Shown: positions 15,712-22,651, counted from the stretch's first letter. The stretch: 64,000 bases of DNA from Bdellovibrionales bacterium (GCA_965242635.1 OZ251471.1:1332322-1396321), one strand, 5' to 3'. Notes: generated from the letters alone by a model not told the origin. Numbers and translations: made by a program.

Positions 15712-16037
15712 CTAATACTGGCATCTAATACCCTTGGGGATGAGAGAAAATCCTTTACATTTGTCATGGGCTTCATCAATACAATCATTCATGCAACCTT
15801 TTGTCTGGAGAGCACTACATTCTGCCATACAATCCAACACATAGCGGGTTTCAGGACCTCTGGTCCGTCGTTTCATATACTCGTATTTATCAAGGCATTT
15901 TGTATCTCGTATACCACACCACCACATTCAGCACGAGCAAACTGTTCATAGTCCTCCACACCGGCCACAGCACGGTTGTTCAGCTCACTGGTCACACAGC
16001 CTGTCAAGATGAGACCAAGGAAAAGTATTGTTTTCAT
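15712..16037 (-). pseudogene. Probable frameshifted Cys-rich lipoprotein (54-aa ORF 16037-15873 plus 71-aa ORF 15927-15712)
   Basis: GGAGG RBS and MKTILFLGLILTGC lipobox ORF stops at 15873; an overlapping frame continues with CxxxC repeats. Confidence 0.5.
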
Positions 16038-16088
16038 AATGAACCCTCCAAGTTAAAAGGTTGTTGTTTTCATATATCCTGCCCTCTT

Positions 16089-16421
16089 TTACTTTTTTAC
16101 CACCTCTTTTATCCCTTTAAAGCCTTCTTTCATTTCTGACTTGAGATCATCGAATTTTTTGTTTGTGTCCTGTCTAAGTTCATCGAATTTTTTGTTTGTG
16201 TCCACTCTGAGATCATCTGTCTTTTTGTTTGTATCAGTGATATGGTTGTCCAGCTTCTCGTTTATATGTTTTAACTCACCTCTGATAATCTCCATATTGG
16301 CTTTATTCTCATATCTGAATTCCCTCCTCAAAAAGAAGAAAAACACAATAAAAGCAATGACCAGGATTAAAATGTTGGCAGTGGTTTGCTCGGATAAAAG
16401 GTTTATCAAAAAAGGCTTCAT
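16089..16421 (-). CDS. N-terminal TM / coiled-coil protein, NHITDTNK family copy A
   Basis: TM helix, LDNHITDTNKK core, three 33-nt (11-aa) repeats at 16147-16235. Confidence 0.8.
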   Translation of the reverse strand: MKPFLINLLSEQTTANILILVIAFIVFFFFLRREFRYENKANMEIIRGELKHINEKLDNHITDTNKKTDDLRVDTNKKFDELRQDTNKKFDDLKSEMKEGFKGIKEVVKK

Positions 16422-16427
16422 GCCCTC

Positions 16428-16455
16428 ATTATAGCAGAGGACCAAGTTTTGTCAA
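16428..16455 (-). promoter_or_regulatory. Sigma70-type promoter giving a leaderless transcript
   Basis: TTGACA-16nt-TATAAT-6nt-ATG(16421). Confidence 0.8.
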
Positions 16456-16594
16456 GATGTGTTGAAAAATAGCCAACCGGGGCATTTTAAGGCCTCTGTT
16501 TCGCCAAAAAGGGCCTGATGAGGCGGTAAAAAGGGCCTGACTGCCCATATTATGGAGCTGATCTCAAAGTCAGGTTTTTTTAAGGCTTAAAGGC

Positions 16595-16975
16595 TTAGCG
16601 GGCCTGCCTTTTGTTTATACTCTCCCGGATCTCCGCCCCTTCAATGCTGAGCGAGGTCCAGGGCAGGGCCATAAGCCTTTCCGGTTCAATATACTCGCCT
16701 GTCTCTTCACACACGCCATAACAGCCCTGCTCTATCCGGGCCAGAGCCATTTCCACAGCCATAAGCCGGCCGTTAATTCTCTCGTTTCTGTATAAAAACT
16801 CTTTTTCTTCCATAAGCCGGACAGTCTGATCCCCTTCATCCCCTTTTTGATCCTCTGCAAAAAGCATGTCGTGTCGTGCCTCCCGCACCTGATTAAGCAG
16901 GTCTGTTTTGGTTTTCAGCAGTTTTTGTTTGCATTGATCCAAAATTTTTTTTGGAATTTCGTTTGTGGACATCAT
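16595..16975 (-). CDS. dksA: DksA/TraR family transcription factor
   Basis: Coiled coil with GDEGD tip, ALARIEQGCYGVCEETGEYIEPERLMALP; AGGAGAGG RBS. Confidence 0.85.
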   Translation of the reverse strand: MMSTNEIPKKILDQCKQKLLKTKTDLLNQVREARHDMLFAEDQKGDEGDQTVRLMEEKEFLYRNERINGRLMAVEMALARIEQGCYGVCEETGEYIEPERLMALPWTSLSIEGAEIRESINKRQAR

Positions 16976-17188
16976 GGCACCTCTCCTTGGTTAAAGTCCC
17001 GGCCCTTCCTCCCGAAGGGCCTTGTTGGCTGGTTAAAGGTTTTTTAAGTTTGCCTTTAAAATCTTTAAAAGCAAAAAACTTTAAGGACTTAAAGCCTAAC
17101 AGGGGCCGGGCAATATGTCATGTGTTTATTTGGCCCTTTGAGCCATAAGCCCTTCTGCCTTTTGAATCGGTTTTTGGGGCTAAAACTT

Positions 17189-17337
17189 TAAAAATACTTT
17201 GAATTATTGGCTTTTTTGGCCAAAGAATCAGAGAAACAGTCAAAGACAAAAGAGCTAATCATGGAGTTTGGGATGGGAAAATTCTGGTCTTTGGTCTGTG
17301 CACTTTTAATCAGGAGGCCTTGTCTTCTGGTGCAAAA
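17189..17337 (+). repeat. Degenerate copy of the antiporter 5' region (18327-18476)
   Basis: Both begin taaaaatactttgaattat and end cttctggtgcaaaa, with shared internal blocks (aaagaatcag, tttgggatggg, tggtctttggtctgtg). Confidence 0.85.
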
Positions 17338-18173
17338 AACCACCCTTTTGTCCAGCCCTTTTTCAGCCTCTGGTTTGTTTTTTTGACAAAGGATGGGTTT
17401 TTTTCAAACCCTATGAATTTTCGGCCGGATTTCAGACAAACAGTGGGCACAGTCCCCACGCCACAAAAAGGATCCAAAACAATATCCCCTTTGTTGGAGC
17501 TGGCCCGGACAATTCTTTCTATCAACTTTTCCGGTTTTTGGACCGTGTTTAAAGCATGTCTATCCACCAGCTCTTTGGACTTGTAAGTCAGTTGTTTTAT
17601 ATCCCCCCACACATCGCCGGGGTTTTTTCCTTTTTCGTTAAATTGAGTCATGCCCCATTTCCCGTTTTTGACAGAGGGCACATTTTCGCATCTCTTTCTG
17701 TGTTCTATCTCCACCAGCTGAGGGACCCTGATATCGTTTAGGTTATAGGTTTTGGCACGTTCCCCTTTCACGAAATAACATATAATGTCATAGTTATTGG
17801 TCCAGTTAATCCGTCCCTGAGCCAGCCGGCTGGGCTGATACCACACAATTTTTCTTTTGAGATTGAGATAGGGTGTATAGTCTATAAAATCCACACAGTC
17901 CGGTTTTCCAAAGAGGTAAAGGCTCGCACCAGGGGCCATTTTTTTGGAGAGTATTTTGATAAGCTGAAGATTATATTCCTGGATATTGGCAATTTTATCC
18001 CATTTGTTGGCGGTGACCCCATAAGGCCCATCACAGATGATAAGGTCTATGGAGGCAGGCTCAACCTGATGTATCAGATCAAAAAAATCCCCGCATAGCA
18101 CCACCCCTGGACACCTGTTGGAATGGATGGTTGGCTTGGAGGAGGGGGATTTAAGCTGGCTCATCAGTATCAT
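17310..18173 (-). CDS. Orphan beta-class N4/N6 DNA methyltransferase
   Basis: IDLIICDGPYG (motif IV variant), KNPGDVW, QKPEKLIERIVRASSNKGDIVLDPFCGVGT (motif I), FIGFEKN; no endonuclease nearby. Confidence 0.9.
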   Translation of the reverse strand: MILMSQLKSPSSKPTIHSNRCPGVVLCGDFFDLIHQVEPASIDLIICDGPYGVTANKWDKIANIQEYNLQLIKILSKKMAPGASLYLFGKPDCVDFIDYTPYLNLKRKIVWYQPSRLAQGRINWTNNYDIICYFVKGERAKTYNLNDIRVPQLVEIEHRKRCENVPSVKNGKWGMTQFNEKGKNPGDVWGDIKQLTYKSKELVDRHALNTVQKPEKLIERIVRASSNKGDIVLDPFCGVGTVPTVCLKSGRKFIGFEKNPSFVKKTNQRLKKGWTKGWFFAPEDKAS

Positions 18174-18267
18174 GGTTTAAAAGCTCCTGCTAAGCTGATC
18201 CATCAGTATCATGGTTTAAAAGCTCCTGCTAAGCTGATCCATCAGTATCATGGTTTAAAAGCTCCTG
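18153..18267. repeat. 39-bp tandem repeat, about 3 copies, spanning the MTase RBS and start
   Basis: Unit aagctgatccatcagtatcatggtttaaaagctcctgct at 18153, 18192 and 18231. Confidence 0.95.
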
Positions 18268-18399
18268 TCTGGTTTAACCAAAAGCTCTGGTCTACTTATA
18301 ATCGGCGGGTTTTTAAGGGTCAAGTATAAAAATACTTTGAATTATCAGCCGATTTTGGCTAAAGAATCAGGGGAAACAGTAGCAGTAAAGGAGTTTGAC

Positions 18400-19377
18400 A
18401 TGTGGTTTTGGGATGGGGTCATTTTGGTCTTTGGTCTGTGTGCTTTAATCAAGGGGGCGGACCTTCTGGTGCAAAAGTCCGCTCTTTTGTGTAGACGCTT
18501 TTCTCTCTCCCCTTTCTTTGTGGGGGTGGTGCTCCTGGGCATGGGCACCTCCGCCCCGGAGGCCGGGGTGTCAGCCCTATCCTCCCTAAAGGGTCTCTCT
18601 CATCTGGCGGTGGGAAATGTTTTTGGGTCCAATATTTTTAATATCCTGTTGGTTTTGGGCTTGATACTTTTTCAACCTCTTCCCTTAAAAAAAATCACCG
18701 GCAGAAAAAAGGACATCTGGTTTTTGGTTTTGACCGGGTTTGTTCTGGGCCCTTTGATGTGGGACCTTTTTCTCTCACGCCTGGAGGCTTTTTTATTAAG
18801 CCTTTTGTTTTTTGGCTATATGCTGATCTGTTACTTTAACTCCGGCCGGGAGGCAAAAGATCTCCTGACCGGGGGAGGGCCGGCAACAGCCAGGCTCCCG
18901 GTGGGTTCTTTTGGTTTGGCGGGCCTTTCTTTTTGGATGGGTTTGGGCTTTTTGTTGTTGGCGGGGGGGGCACATCTGACAGTGATGGGGGCAGAGGGGC
19001 TGGGACGAAGATGGGGCATTTCAGAAAGAATACTGGGGCTTTTGGTGGTGTCGGCGGGCACCAGCCTTCCGGAGTTTGTGGCCTCTTTGACGGCACTGAT
19101 AAAAGGGCATAAGGACATGGCAATAGGTAATATTATTGGCTCCAATGTGTTTAACACTTTTGCCATTTTGAGCCTGGCTGTGTGGATTAGACCAGCCCCT
19201 TTGGATATGAAAATGCTGGTCCTGGACCTGCCCGCCCTTTGGATCACTCATCTTCTTTTGTTGGTTCTCATTTTTGGATACCACCTGAAGTGGGTGCAAA
19301 AAGTTCTGCCTTATGTGTTTTTTATGGCCTACGGGGCCTTTCTTCTAAGCCTCTTTCTTTATCCTGAGGCGGGATAA
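18400..19377 (+). CDS. Ca2+/Na+ antiporter (YrbG family)
   Basis: Two alpha repeats GTSAPE/GTSLPE and GNVFGSNIFN/GNIIGSNVFN; AAGGAG before ATG 18400. Confidence 0.93.
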   Translation: MWFWDGVILVFGLCALIKGADLLVQKSALLCRRFSLSPFFVGVVLLGMGTSAPEAGVSALSSLKGLSHLAVGNVFGSNIFNILLVLGLILFQPLPLKKITGRKKDIWFLVLTGFVLGPLMWDLFLSRLEAFLLSLLFFGYMLICYFNSGREAKDLLTGGGPATARLPVGSFGLAGLSFWMGLGFLLLAGGAHLTVMGAEGLGRRWGISERILGLLVVSAGTSLPEFVASLTALIKGHKDMAIGNIIGSNVFNTFAILSLAVWIRPAPLDMKMLVLDLPALWITHLLLLVLIFGYHLKWVQKVLPYVFFMAYGAFLLSLFLYPEAG

Positions 19378-19487
19378 CACCTCCAAGCCAATTTTGGTAT
19401 AAGTGTGTAAATTTTTCACGGTTACAGGGGATAAAACTCAAATAATGCCTCTTCTCTAAAAAAAATCACAGGGTTTGGATATTTTTC

Positions 19488-19516
19488 TTGACAAAAACCT
19501 GTTCAAGGCACATAAT
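19488..19516 (+). promoter_or_regulatory. Sigma70-type promoter, probably leaderless
   Basis: TTGACA-17nt-CATAAT-7nt-ATG(19524), no SD. Confidence 0.55.
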
Positions 19517-19523
19517 GTAAAAC

Positions 19524-19877
19524 ATGGAAAAAAGAGAAAAAAACCCATCTTTGGAACCCTCTGGTGAGGAAAAAGCCTTTGTCTGCCAACAGGCCATGGA
19601 GCTTGGGCCTTTTTTGGCCGGAAGTGGCGGGGGCCCTGTGGCGGTGGTTTTGGAAAAAAACAAAGGGAAAAAAGGTGAACGTTTTGCCGTCACCTTTATT
19701 TTGATTCCCGACAAGTTCAATATCAAAATTCGGGCCAAGGGGGATAATCTTTTTGATGTCTGTAAGGATGCCAAAGATCAGGCCAAAAAAACCTTAAGCC
19801 TTATCATGAACCAGCAGGATTCCCCCATGAGGGATATGCACATGGCTCATCTCAAAAAATTCCCTTACCTTCAATAA
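19524..19877 (+). CDS. Hypothetical protein (weak HPF/RaiA-like appearance)
   Basis: 117-aa ORF with its own promoter; 'IRAKGDNLFDVCKDAKDQAKKTL' recalls the HPF helix. Not confirmed. Confidence 0.55.
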   Translation: MEKREKNPSLEPSGEEKAFVCQQAMELGPFLAGSGGGPVAVVLEKNKGKKGERFAVTFILIPDKFNIKIRAKGDNLFDVCKDAKDQAKKTLSLIMNQQDSPMRDMHMAHLKKFPYLQ

Positions 19878-21117
19878 AATTCACAGGAAAGCCCAGCTTT
19901 TTTAACAGGGCCTTTTGGTTTGGTTTGGAAAGGCTGGTCAGAGGAAGAGCGGGAACAATATAAAGGGCCTGGATTTTTTCAAAAGGGGATACTTTCCTGT
20001 TAAATTCCCGGATGGTGCCAATGAGGGCTTTTTGGTTCCAAATATCTGTTGTCACAGTGATTTGCCAGCCTTCTCTTTCAGAGGGAAGAGGCAGGAGATA
20101 AGCCCGCCCAGCAAAAGAATTTTTGAGCAAAAGACGGGTGAATCGATCTTTTAGATCAGGAATATCCACTTTTTCCCCCAATATTTTGATGAATTCCGCT
20201 CTTCCCACCTGCAAAAACCGGCCTTTTTGGACTTTTCCCAGATCTCCTGTCTTATACCAGGAATTTTTACGGTTTTGAAAGTGTATATTAAATGGGGCAG
20301 ATTTTGCCGCAGGAGCTGGTTTATTTAACAGAGGGGGGGCAAGAGGGACAAAGCCCGTGAGCAGGCTTTCTGACTTGAGAATGATCTCCCCTTTGATGAT
20401 TTTGACCTCAACATGAGGGAGTATTTTTAAAGCCGGCAAAGAGGAGGGGTCTTTCAGGGAGCCGGGTTCTGCTGTGGCCACCTGAGAGCCACACTCGGTC
20501 AGGCCATAAGTGGGAAGAAGAGGCCATTTGAGGGCCCGGGCCAACTGATAAAGACCGGGGCTTAAGCTCTCCCCGCCCACCAAAGCCAGCCTGAGGGCCG
20601 GGGGGGCCGGGAGCTTGGCCTGAACCAAATCATAAACCTGTGTGGGCACAAGAGAGCAAAGGCTGATTTTTTTCTCTTTTAAAAAATAACAAAAAGCTTT
20701 GGCCCCCCACTTTTTCCTGTAGACAAAGCAGGGGCTTTGAGAGAGATGGGCCCGGGCGGTTATGGCCAGCCCTCCCACATGAAAAAGGGGCAAACAAAGC
20801 CCCCATCGGTCTTTTGAGCTGACTTCAAGGTGCTGATTGACGGCCTGAGCGGAGATCAGCATGGCTTTTTTGGAAAGAGCCACCCATTTTTGCTGTGTGC
20901 GACCGGAGGTGGCGAGCCACACATGCCCTTTCAAACGGGGGAGCCGGGGAATGGAATTTAAAAAAAGGGCTTTATTCGCATGCTTTTTATTAAAAAAAAG
21001 TGAGGTTCTTTCTGAATCCCAATCCACTTTTGAGGGATTGATTTGATACAGTTTGGGGGTGGGGCCAGGGCCAGGGCTTGGCTTATGGGGGAGAGCTCTT
21101 TTTGGTTTCCGAATCAT
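19852..21117 (-). CDS. menE: O-succinylbenzoate-CoA ligase-like AMP-binding enzyme
   Basis: TSGRT, LPLFHVGGL, SLVPTQ, YGLTECGSQ, TGDLG, GEKV. Confidence 0.8.
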   Translation of the reverse strand: MIRKPKRALPHKPSPGPGPTPKLYQINPSKVDWDSERTSLFFNKKHANKALFLNSIPRLPRLKGHVWLATSGRTQQKWVALSKKAMLISAQAVNQHLEVSSKDRWGLCLPLFHVGGLAITARAHLSQSPCFVYRKKWGAKAFCYFLKEKKISLCSLVPTQVYDLVQAKLPAPPALRLALVGGESLSPGLYQLARALKWPLLPTYGLTECGSQVATAEPGSLKDPSSLPALKILPHVEVKIIKGEIILKSESLLTGFVPLAPPLLNKPAPAAKSAPFNIHFQNRKNSWYKTGDLGKVQKGRFLQVGRAEFIKILGEKVDIPDLKDRFTRLLLKNSFAGRAYLLPLPSEREGWQITVTTDIWNQKALIGTIREFNRKVSPFEKIQALYIVPALPLTSLSKPNQKALLKKLGFPVNFIEGKGIF

Positions 21118-21246
21118 AGCCCCCCTGATACACTATTTTTTGATATAAAAAAAGCCCCCCGGCAAAAGAGGGTCTGCCGGGGCCCCAAGCTCCCGGAATT
21201 TTTAAAGCCTGCTAATGGTCTATTTGCTTGGCGGAGGCTTGTTTTT

Positions 21247-21537
21247 TTACCCCAGCTGACGGGTTATAGGGGCTGGACCCACTTCTTCTGTTTCAGAACC
21301 ATCAAACTCCTCTCCACGCTCTGTTTCCTCTTCTTCTGTATCCCCCTCTTCTTCTGTATCCCCCTCCTTGCCCTCTTCTTTATTTTCTTCCTTGTTTTCC
21401 CCGTCGGGTGGGTTTTTGACCGGATCGGGCCGGGCGTTCTGGCTTATAGAGAACTGATGATCTTTAAAGCCCCCCGGTTCCTTTAAAGGGGCACAATTTA
21501 AAATAAGGGACAAAAGAACAAAAATGAGCCATTTCAT
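21247..21537 (-). CDS. Small lipoprotein with acidic low-complexity tail
   Basis: MKWLIFVLLSLILNC signal/lipobox-like start after AGGAGA; E/G-rich tail. Confidence 0.6.
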   Translation of the reverse strand: MKWLIFVLLSLILNCAPLKEPGGFKDHQFSISQNARPDPVKNPPDGENKEENKEEGKEGDTEEEGDTEEEETERGEEFDGSETEEVGPAPITRQLG

Positions 21538-21764
21538 ATATCTTCTCCTTTTTCCTGGGCTAAAGGCCACTCTCTTTTTATCGGCTTTGGTCCTGATTTT
21601 CTTAAGCCTTTTGACGGGCCGGCCCCCAGGGACCGCATAAAAGAGACATCCGGGGGGCCAAAACCGTCCAAAAGTGTCCAAGTTGGCCTTTCTCGACAAA
21701 TCTTATTTCTGTGGTATAGTGGGTATGAGTATGGGGGGGGTATAAATTTATCAGCAATAACCGG

Positions 21765-21792
21765 TTGACAAAGCTTGTTTCTGTGCTATAAT
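21765..21792 (+). promoter_or_regulatory. Sigma70-type promoter giving a leaderless transcript
   Basis: TTGACA-16nt-TATAAT-6nt-ATG(21799); degenerate upstream duplicate at 21693-21730. Confidence 0.8.
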
Positions 21793-21798
21793 GGGTGT

Positions 21799-22059
21799 AT
21801 GAGTTTAAACAAAATCTTGGCCGTTTGTGGCTTTCTTATTCTTTACACAGGATTGCTCTTTGGTGGGTGGGCATGGATGCTTAATGCTCAGACTAAACAA
21901 ATAGAGGCGAAAATAGAGCCTATAAAAGAGCTATTGACCAACCATATCACTGATACCAACAAAAAGATTGAAGAAAACAGCAGAAAAATTGATCGGTTAA
22001 GCGACCGGTTTGACCGGCTTTATGAATTGCTTTTAAAGGAAAAAACCAAAAAACCCTGA
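21799..22059 (+). CDS. N-terminal TM / coiled-coil protein, NHITDTNK family copy B
   Basis: TM helix, LTNHITDTNKK, C-terminal DRFDRLYELLLKEK similar to copies C and D. Confidence 0.8.
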   Translation: MSLNKILAVCGFLILYTGLLFGGWAWMLNAQTKQIEAKIEPIKELLTNHITDTNKKIEENSRKIDRLSDRFDRLYELLLKEKTKKP

Positions 22060-22078
22060 ATCCAATTGGAGGCCCATT

Positions 22079-22651
22079 ATGAAAGTAATAATTTTCCTTG
22101 GTCTTAGCTTGGCAGGCTGTGTGACTAGTGGGCTTAAAACCCGGTCTGTGGCCCGTGAAGACTGTAATATTGAGAATTATCAGGATTTTATAAACAAGTC
22201 AGGTGTTCATAATTGCGATTTAGCTGGAGCAAATTTTGACCATGCGGACTTAAAAGCGGCGAATTTTGCCGGGGCTAATTTGAAAGGGGCAAGTTTGGTC
22301 CATGCGAAGTTGGTCCGGGCACGCCTGAGAGAGGCTGATTTGGCTTCTGCGGATTTGATGGGTGCGAATTTAGAAGGGGCGGATGTGGCCTCTGCGAATT
22401 TTGCCGGGGCTAGTTTACAAGGAGTGCAATTGGCTTTTGCGTATTTGGAAAGGGCGAACTTGGAAAAGGCGGATTTAAGCCATGCACGACTGGAAGAGAC
22501 GAATTTGATCGGGGCCAATAACTTGGAAAAGGCCAATCTAAAAGGAGCAAGAGTCACTGTTTCCATGGGAGGTTTTTTAAAGTCAAAAGGCTTAAGTGGC
22601 TTTGTTGTTGATTCTTCTTATCGGAAGAGGCGGGGTTGGATAGCACAGTAA
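22079..22651 (+). CDS. Pentapeptide-repeat lipoprotein
   Basis: Lipobox LAGC; many A(D/N)Lxx repeats (ANFDHADLKAANFAGANLKGA...). Confidence 0.9.
   Translation: MKVIIFLGLSLAGCVTSGLKTRSVAREDCNIENYQDFINKSGVHNCDLAGANFDHADLKAANFAGANLKGASLVHAKLVRARLREADLASADLMGANLEGADVASANFAGASLQGVQLAFAYLERANLEKADLSHARLEETNLIGANNLEKANLKGARVTVSMGGFLKSKGLSGFVVDSSYRKRRGWIAQ

Follow-up and report, generated by a model that had tools for sequence, protein, structure and literature searches.

Two small lipoprotein genes of a Bdellovibrionales bacterium carry a 5' leader cassette that is shared by three unrelated body classes

Two window genes belong to a large leader family

In a stretch of 64,000 nucleotides from a Bdellovibrionales bacterium (GCA_965242635.1, OZ251471.1:1332322-1396321; here called the window), two small lipoprotein genes, lipoA (start codon at 16037(-)) and lipoB (22079(+)), share their 5' ends and differ in the bodies that follow. 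The genome consists of one contig of 1,998,056 bp with 44.7% G+C; positions are those of the window unless they are marked as genome coordinates. At a probability of roughly 0.75, we read lipoA and lipoB as two diverged members of a lineage-restricted set of ∼40 small lipoprotein genes with one portable 5' cassette, in which leaders and bodies have been recombined.

The 5' regions of the two genes are homologous at the DNA level, as the original prediction had stated, with 82% identity over ∼93 nt (16051-15959(-) and 22066-22157(+)). In a search of the whole 2.0-Mb genome this was the best non-self match (E 4.4e-19). The homology sets in at the TTGGAGG ribosome site, includes the ATG, the 13 residues of the signal peptide, the lipobox Cys and ten more codons, and ends abruptly at the R(A/S)VA tether, at about codon 27. 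The leaders aligned at this homology are CVTSELNNRAVA and CVTSGLKTRSVA.

The family was identified with a hidden Markov model (HMM) of the 28 N-terminal residues. With this leader HMM ∼40 open reading frames (ORFs) carrying the leader were detected in the genome, and the lipoA leader used as a DNA query likewise returned many more copies in a whole-genome search. Family copies are distributed over 24 loci, some of them tandem runs of up to five genes. Among the leaders, those of lipoA and lipoB are mutual best matches and represent the most diverged variant. Most flanks of the lipoprotein clusters are themselves multi-copy repeats (75-100% identical, 200-1000 bp, scattered on the chromosome), and the genome is unusually rich in paralogous segments for its size of 2 Mb.

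The bodies behind the leader fall into three classes, counted on 39 classed copies. Class P (11 copies, with lipoB as the window gene) has pentapeptide repeats between the caps CNIENYKDFINKEGVHNC and KVTQEQAEYLKSKGFSGFVVVE. Class C1 (7 copies, with lipoA as the window gene) shows the pattern C-x7-8-C..LKRRTR..C..C..C..DC. Class C2 (∼20 copies, none of them in the window) starts with the tether ANTRDLSAINP, followed by one or two CX3C-x10-CX3C units. AlphaFold modelled the C1 body as a four-helix bundle (predicted local distance difference test score 81-93 from residue 31 onward); a fold search with this model against the PDB gave no match with an E value below 1, and the modelled fold looks like a generic helical bundle. 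The C2 models contain two helix-loop-helix hairpins and disordered linkers. Neither C1 nor C2 had a match in Pfam, NCBIfam or PHROG. The three classes are structurally unrelated: a pentapeptide beta-helix (P), a disulfide-rich four-helix bundle (C1) and twin-CX3C hairpins (C2). The idea of a constant N-terminal export module on unrelated bodies, put forward for the two window genes, thus holds for ∼40 copies once further copies and their C-terminal domains are followed through the genome.

Leaders and bodies have different genealogies

To compare the leaders, the 45 nt from the ATG to the lipobox Cys were used in the 39 copies. In 24 of these the nearest leader belongs to another body class, and for each of the seven C1 leaders the closest one is a P leader. 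Several leaders are 100% identical across classes: C2_297821 has the same leader as P_298152, and C2_1917903 the same as P_575232 and P_1918290. Sliding-window identity illustrates the mosaic within single genes. The bodies of P_298152 and P_1955341 are 90-100% identical and their signal peptides only 67-80%, whereas P_298152 and the adjacent C2_297821 have 100% identical signal peptides and bodies at the background level of ∼45-50%. Since the genealogies of leader and body disagree, one cassette has come to stand before different bodies repeatedly, through recombination or gene conversion at the leader. Third codon positions of the leader are conserved as much as first positions (0.83), which points to spread or homogenisation at the DNA level. 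The swappable surface domain of the original prediction is therefore borne out as an exchange of bodies over evolutionary time, one that extends far beyond two genes; its coupling to a neighbouring NHITDTNK gene and to active switching was not supported, as described below.

A natural chimera was noticed in a related assembly. The protein P0047 (221 aa) consists of the family leader, a pentapeptide body and a C-terminal C2-type CX3C...CX3C hairpin (..YEDCMVDCLANGGSTRGCHEVCE).

The cassette comprises a predicted promoter, ribosome site, signal peptide and tether

When the 5' flanks of the family were lined up, the conserved block proved longer than ribosome site and leader (...TGGACA(or TTGACA)caagccgataggcaTGaTATAGTgagaaaaaaccatttaccttttGGAGGTGcattATGAAAG...). 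Five elements can be distinguished. The first is a predicted sigma-70-type promoter (TGGACA/TTGACA, 17 nt, extended -10 TGaTATAGT), the spacer of which is itself conserved. It is followed by an A-rich 5' untranslated region (5'UTR) of 29-38 nt, a strong GGAGGTG ribosome site 4 nt 5' of the ATG, and a very short lipobox signal peptide with the family consensus MK(A/V)LIIFLSLVF(M/V)GC. The last element is formed by the first mature residues, which are CVT in all classes and extend to CVT(S/G)GxxxR(A/S)VA in two of them. For the invariant Arg of the R(A/S)VA tether the copies use all four CGN codons, and for this reason the tether seems to be under constraint at the protein level.

The -10 block is present in 27 of the 39 classed copies, most of which also have a recognisable -35 box, and a 115-nt block of promoter plus leader occurs 21 times at 83-100% identity. 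Genes that follow another in a tandem run usually keep only the stretch from aaccttttggaggtgcattATG onward. Both window copies lack the full promoter block that most family members have as their own. The lipoA copy (15959-16083(-)) begins 5 nt past the stop codon of the upstream gene NH-A and keeps the block from a -10 remnant onward, with 5'UTR, GGAGG, ATG, signal peptide MKTILFLGLILTGC and tether VTSELNNRAVA. The lipoB copy (22048-22157(+)) has retained only the A-rich 5'UTR, which overlaps the last codons of the upstream gene NH-B, together with GGAGG, ATG, signal peptide MKVIIFLGLSLAGC and tether VTSGLKTRSVA. RNA structure was considered as a reason for the 5' conservation and rejected: the 84 nt of 5'UTR and leader fold no better than shuffled sequences (z +0.44).

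Both window leaders have the positively charged n-region, hydrophobic h-region and [LVI][ASTVI][GAS]C lipobox of a lipoprotein signal peptide (MK-VIIFLGLS-LAGC in lipoB, MK-TILFLGLI-LTGC in lipoA). The enzymes for lipid modification are encoded in the genome, namely Lgt (PF01790, genome 1516679-1517713, E 5e-50) and LspA (PF01252, genome 950329-950754, E 1e-37). The cassette would give all members the same transcription and translation signals and the same way out of the cell, with a predicted route from Sec via Lgt and LspA to anchoring in the outer membrane. In E. coli, a lipoprotein in which Asp is absent after the lipid-modified Cys goes to the outer membrane, and it is because Val, not Asp, occupies this position in the family that outer-membrane anchoring is predicted. 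The Cys-rich bodies suggest an oxidising compartment, that is the periplasm or the cell surface. The bodies would then supply diverse periplasmic or surface functions; the conserved promoter spacer may be an operator, and for the conserved tether a role in sorting or as a spacer is possible.

lipoA is a frameshifted member of class C1

The ORF that starts at 16037(-) encodes 54 aa only and ends at a premature stop (15873-16037(-)); it comprises the leader and the start of a C1 body. The Cys-rich part (..DTKCLDKYEYMKRRTR..C..C..C..DC..) lies in a different frame, within a 71-aa ORF at 15927-15712(-). A profile built from six intact C1 paralogues matched the DNA in two halves, one frame (16037-15921) covering positions 1-41 and the other (15912-15748) positions 44-104; the E values of the two halves were 3.5e-11 and 8.9e-16. 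When the frames are joined, lipoA aligns end to end with the six paralogues, every invariant Cys included, and by this full-length alignment and the conserved Cys pattern it belongs to class C1. Because the profile halves fall in different frames and the joined sequence aligns fully, lipoA is to be read as a frameshifted pseudogene, with no intact reading frame in this assembly. The shift lies within GGTGTGGT at 15913-15920(-), which parts the leader half from the C-terminal part at 15712-15912(-). The gene at 16037(-) had been predicted to carry a Cys-rich domain. The homologous leader and the Cys-rich body are indeed present; it is the continuous reading frame that fails. A convergent agmatinase gene is located beyond lipoA. 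For annotation, lipoA is accordingly a pseudogene in this assembly.

lipoB is an intact class P lipoprotein gene

lipoB (22079-22651(+)) encodes an intact class P lipoprotein of 190 aa and is followed by the ComM gene. Its pentapeptide-repeat beta-helix region comprises residues ∼44-160 (22208-22558(+)) and is placed between the class-specific caps CNIENYQDFINKSGVHNC and FLKSKGLSGFVV. The Pfam family PF00805 matched lipoB at E 2.1e-34 (117.1 bits, cut-off 20.2) with four stretches of A(D/N)LXX repeats, in agreement with the earlier designation of this gene as a pentapeptide-repeat protein. Relatives in the PDB, with E values down to 5.6e-28, are the beta-helix structures of All3740, Np275/276, Alr5209, Rfr and TL15. 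No named NCBIfam subfamily, Qnr, MfpA, HetL and PipB among them, was matched by lipoB above the subfamily cut-off. The exact lipoB protein was not found in public assemblies, and a search for loci related to lipoB returned only generic pentapeptide proteins from many phyla.

Three further pentapeptide proteins of the genome (genome 181180-180500(-), 1845592-1845137(-) and 1412606-1411671(-)) have the same C-terminal cap behind ordinary, non-lipoprotein signal peptides, and one of them also has the N-cap. The P body is thus used with at least two kinds of export signal. In the class P copy at genome 1955341(-) the lipobox Cys codon is TTT (Phe; VVVSFVAS) and the signal peptide is otherwise intact; judging from this codon, the copy has probably lost its lipid anchor.

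The family appears restricted to a narrow clade

Judged by ComM, the most similar public genomes are metagenome-assembled genomes of 1.3-2.3 Mb labelled Bdellovibrionales bacterium. A C2 profile run against 5.8 billion proteins found only this genome and a few ENA assemblies. The C2 relatives comprised two contigs of 2.14 and 2.18 Mb and fragments from ERZ26050812. In the 2.18-Mb relative, P and C2 genes alternate in one cluster and share a leader variant of their own, LLSFVFVS(S)CVT. A contig of ERZ26050812 (ctg25163_2x_c; 32,243 bp), which bears the label circular and repeats itself internally with a period of 11.8 kb (99.4% identity), contains a run of five leader lipoprotein genes (four C2 and one C1) with the same promoter and leader blocks. 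Next to this run are genes for a resolvase and a pilin-like (N_methyl) protein and a gene that, by eye, resembles a replication initiator, and the contig may represent a plasmid or a tandem amplification in a close relative. From another metagenome, a 532-bp scaffold (ERZ23495932) has a diverged promoter block (TTGACAatccgataaactgTGaTACAGT) and a leader before a C1 gene. The conservation of the promoter spacer across species on this scaffold hints at an operator. The signal peptide of the C1 gene of ERZ23495932 is broken by a stop, and the start of another leader gene is found after it.

Exact-pattern scans for the leader and for the -10 block returned nothing in JGI metagenomes or GTDB genomes. 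In 13 relatives that share ComM (63-75% identity), neither NH genes nor leader genes were found nearby and no other flanking gene was conserved; as ComM is the only conserved flanking gene, insertion boundaries could not be defined. Altogether, the leader lipoprotein family appears restricted to a narrow clade.

Some observations weigh against the view of lipoA and lipoB as members of an exported, recombining family. Third-position conservation of the leader fits a recent spread as well as ongoing homogenisation. Neighbours of different class that share leaders produce no significant overall effect (mean identity 0.72 vs 0.69, p ∼0.1), so that local gene conversion is shown for individual pairs only and not as a general rule. 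Unusually short signal peptides place the Cys at position 14-16, at the short end of the known range. For an outer-membrane or surface location, the sorting rules of E. coli were carried over to Bdellovibrionota, where they may not apply, and promoter use, lipidation and localisation are all read from sequence. Finally, the frameshift of lipoA could be an assembly error.

Active switching is unlikely

We considered whether the family undergoes phase or antigenic variation within a population, by gene conversion, by inversion between leaders or by slippage in the A-tract of the 5'UTR. Several features are compatible with such a process: leaders and bodies are mosaic, tandem clusters reach five genes, the two window copies form inverted repeats flanking 6 kb, the A-run of the 5'UTR varies from 5 to 9 among copies, and on the contig of the close relative that is labelled circular, with its 11.8-kb period, a cluster stands beside a resolvase gene. 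However, no copy lacks a ribosome site or an ATG, most are also preceded by a promoter of their own, and neither a common expression site nor silent cassettes truncated at the 5' end are present. The window repeats, at 82% over 93 nt, are a poor substrate for frequent homologous recombination. The recombinases of the genome comprise one resolvase (genome 1189843) and two full-length and two fragmentary tyrosine recombinases. None of them is located within a lipoprotein cluster and only one adjoins a cluster, a possibly Xer-type enzyme ∼1.4 kb from the cluster at genome 1844712. A poly-A phase switch is a weak candidate, as the A-run is 6 in 16 of 27 copies and sits downstream of the -10 box, not in the promoter spacer. 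We therefore regard active switching as unlikely. The analogy to antigenic variation drawn in the original prediction is not supported either: these loci have no silent cassettes and no expression site, and they lack both a recombinase next to them and a hypervariable tract.

NHITDTNK genes and leader lipoproteins do not form a conserved unit

Both window genes lie directly 3' of a gene of the NHITDTNK (NH) family, as had been noted before. NH-A (16089-16421(-)) encodes a protein of 110 aa with an N-terminal transmembrane (TM) helix and a hendecad coiled coil (DTNKKFDxLRQ repeats); NH-B (21799-22059(+)) encodes 86 aa and belongs to another subfamily. Each is preceded by a predicted promoter of TTGACA, 16 nt and TGnTATAAT with 12 of 12 matches (16428-16455(-) for NH-A, 21765-21792(+) for NH-B). 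The ATG follows 6 nt past the -10 box in both cases, which implies leaderless NH mRNAs. The peptide LCYNGGM that stands in frame before many NH genes is the translation of this promoter; congeners are alike (VCYNTNM). The genome contains ∼18 NH genes, the small products of which combine a TM helix at the N-terminus with a hendecad coiled coil.

From this neighbourhood it had been proposed that NH and lipoprotein genes are a two-gene cassette with a swapped surface domain, in the style of polymorphic toxins or antigenic variation. NH-lipoprotein junctions do exist at three places (genome 1348413/1348358, 1354377/1354400 and 1509747/1509728). The two window copies carry the same leader variant and are separated from the NH genes by 51 nt (NH-A/lipoA) and 19 nt (NH-B/lipoB), and since no terminator-like site was found in the gaps of 19-51 nt, co-transcription is plausible. 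From their position, lipoA and lipoB may be read through from the NH promoters. Yet 37 of the ∼40 leader lipoprotein genes have no NH gene upstream, and 27 of 39 carry the -10 block of their own family. Conversely, 15 of the 18 NH genes have no lipoprotein gene downstream. Two of the three NH-linked lipoprotein genes are degenerate, one being frameshifted (lipoA) and one cut to 35 aa.

The distribution in the genus argues in the same direction. NH genes were detected in 9 of its 15 genomes, and six congeners have 5-26 copies each. In these six, promoter/leader DNA and the C1 and C2 body profiles were not found, save for one weak, remnant-like match per protein search in one congener (G009). 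At five congener NH loci the NH genes were single or tandem, with no lipobox ORF in the 1.5-kb flanks. There is also no toxin domain and no immunity-like gene. The C-termini are pentapeptide repeats or small Cys-rich helical domains without a toxin match in Pfam, NCBIfam or PHROG, and the next gene downstream is ComM (lipoB), the convergent agmatinase (lipoA) or, elsewhere in the family, another leader lipoprotein gene; no immunity gene was seen among them. The two-gene cassette is thus very improbable, and the analogy to polymorphic toxins is abandoned with it. NH and lipoprotein genes are not a conserved unit, and the placement of the window copies behind NH promoters looks incidental or secondary. 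In annotation, no operon rule should be derived from the NHITDTNK neighbourhood.

At genome 1510617-1509624(-), three tandem NH genes are followed by the leader lipoprotein gene of 35 aa. The NH-to-NH junctions at this locus (taatccaaacttggaggtcca...) resemble the junction from NH-B to lipoB.

A spanin-like pair, with NH as an i-spanin-like inner-membrane coiled coil and the lipoprotein as its o-spanin-like partner in the outer membrane, would have the gene order of separated two-component spanins, in which a protein with TM helix and coiled coil precedes a lipoprotein. NH proteins also gave weak PHROG matches to Rz-like spanins. These matches (E 0.018-0.1) are not significant and are explained by coiled-coil composition; tape-measure, apolipoprotein and ATP-synthase b models were matched equally weakly. 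The positive residues after the NH-A TM helix (FFFFLRREFRYENK) would rather suggest a cytoplasmic coiled coil, lipoB with its beta-helix of a 190-aa protein is unlike the short Pro-rich o-spanins, and the pairing of NH with a lipoprotein is rare. No holin- or endolysin-like gene was seen among the genes screened in or beside the interval, where a DksA/TraR-type protein, a DNA methylase and the ORF 21247-21699 (no match) were searched against Pfam and the other ORFs judged from their translations. With no significant similarity and no lysis-cassette context, an Rz/Rz1-like system was rejected as highly improbable. Finally, a chance or convergent likeness of two ordinary lipoprotein signal peptides, the composition of which is similar everywhere, is refuted by an identity that is found at the DNA level with E 4.4e-19, takes in the untranslated ribosome-site region and 10 codons past the Cys, and belongs to a block recurring ∼40 times in the genome.

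One more ORF of the window, the one at 21247-21699(-) without a Pfam match, reads MKWLIFVLLSLILNCAPL... from an internal start; this N-terminus resembles a signal peptide, its lipobox is atypical (Asn at -1), and the tail is rich in Glu.

Comparison with known systems

The leader lipoprotein family and polymorphic toxins (CdiA-CT, Rhs, LXG) are alike only in the abstract, in that a constant N-terminus is combined with variable C-termini. A toxin domain, an immunity gene and a large trafficking domain are all absent from the family, and its constant part is just a promoter, a signal peptide of 14-16 aa and a short tether. lipoB resembles the pentapeptide-repeat proteins (PF00805; cyanobacterial Rfr, thylakoid-lumen TL15) in its repeats and beta-helix matches. 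In contrast to these, it is predicted to be exported and lipid-anchored, and it has family-specific caps, with Cys-x16-Cys in the N-cap and ..LKSKGxSGFVV in the C-cap.

The design of a shared cassette on lipoproteins is already known from Borrelia and Mycoplasma, and the family described here is homologous to neither. In the Vsp, Vpma and Vlp lipoproteins of M. bovis, M. agalactiae and M. hyorhinis, the 5'UTR and signal-peptide regions are conserved and the mature parts are otherwise unrelated (PMC2268961). The likeness to the Bdellovibrionales family lies in this conserved 5'UTR and signal peptide before unrelated bodies and in the tandem clusters. The Mycoplasma systems, however, switch via a dedicated site-specific recombinase or a promoter tract, neither of which was found at the lipoprotein clusters here; the Mycoplasma bodies are low-complexity repeats, those of the present family folded domains of Cys-rich or beta-helix type.

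The closest analogue is the Erp system of Borrelia burgdorferi, which consists of OspE-related, OspF-related and Elp ('OspE/F-like leader peptide', as defined in PMC12242104) lipoproteins. Erp genes have an upstream homology box with a conserved promoter/operator, and their leader peptide and initial mature residues are conserved as well; the rest of their ORFs are of many independent origins and recombine. Likewise, the family described here has a conserved promoter block, leader and CVT tether on three independent, unrelated bodies with mosaic histories. This is an analogy: homology to Erp was not detected, and C1 and C2 have no match in Pfam, NCBIfam or PHROG. The present family belongs to another phylum, Bdellovibrionota, and its proteins are smaller (80-190 aa). 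It is chromosomal, with 24 scattered loci as against one allelic site per cp32 prophage in Borrelia, and only one plasmid-like contig with these genes is known, in a relative.

It is possible, though we put this forward tentatively, that the leader acts as a portable 'express-and-display' cassette with an operator-like spacer and with the tether CVT(S/G)GxxxR(A/S)VA as a sorting signal, moved by gene conversion among chromosomal and plasmid clusters, and that it maintains a co-regulated, reshuffled surface repertoire at the host/prey interface. If true, it would be a functional counterpart of the Borrelia Erp system that evolved independently in another phylum. The family may also offer usable parts, namely a compact strong cassette of promoter, ribosome site and lipobox, a candidate sorting tether, and two new small disulfide-rich folds, as predicted from the models. 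Shared leader cassettes have been studied mainly in spirochaetes and mollicutes, in which host interaction and immune evasion depend on them. The same design, with leader/body mosaicism, in uncultured small-genome Bdellovibrionales suggests a recurrent solution for diversifiable exported repertoires.

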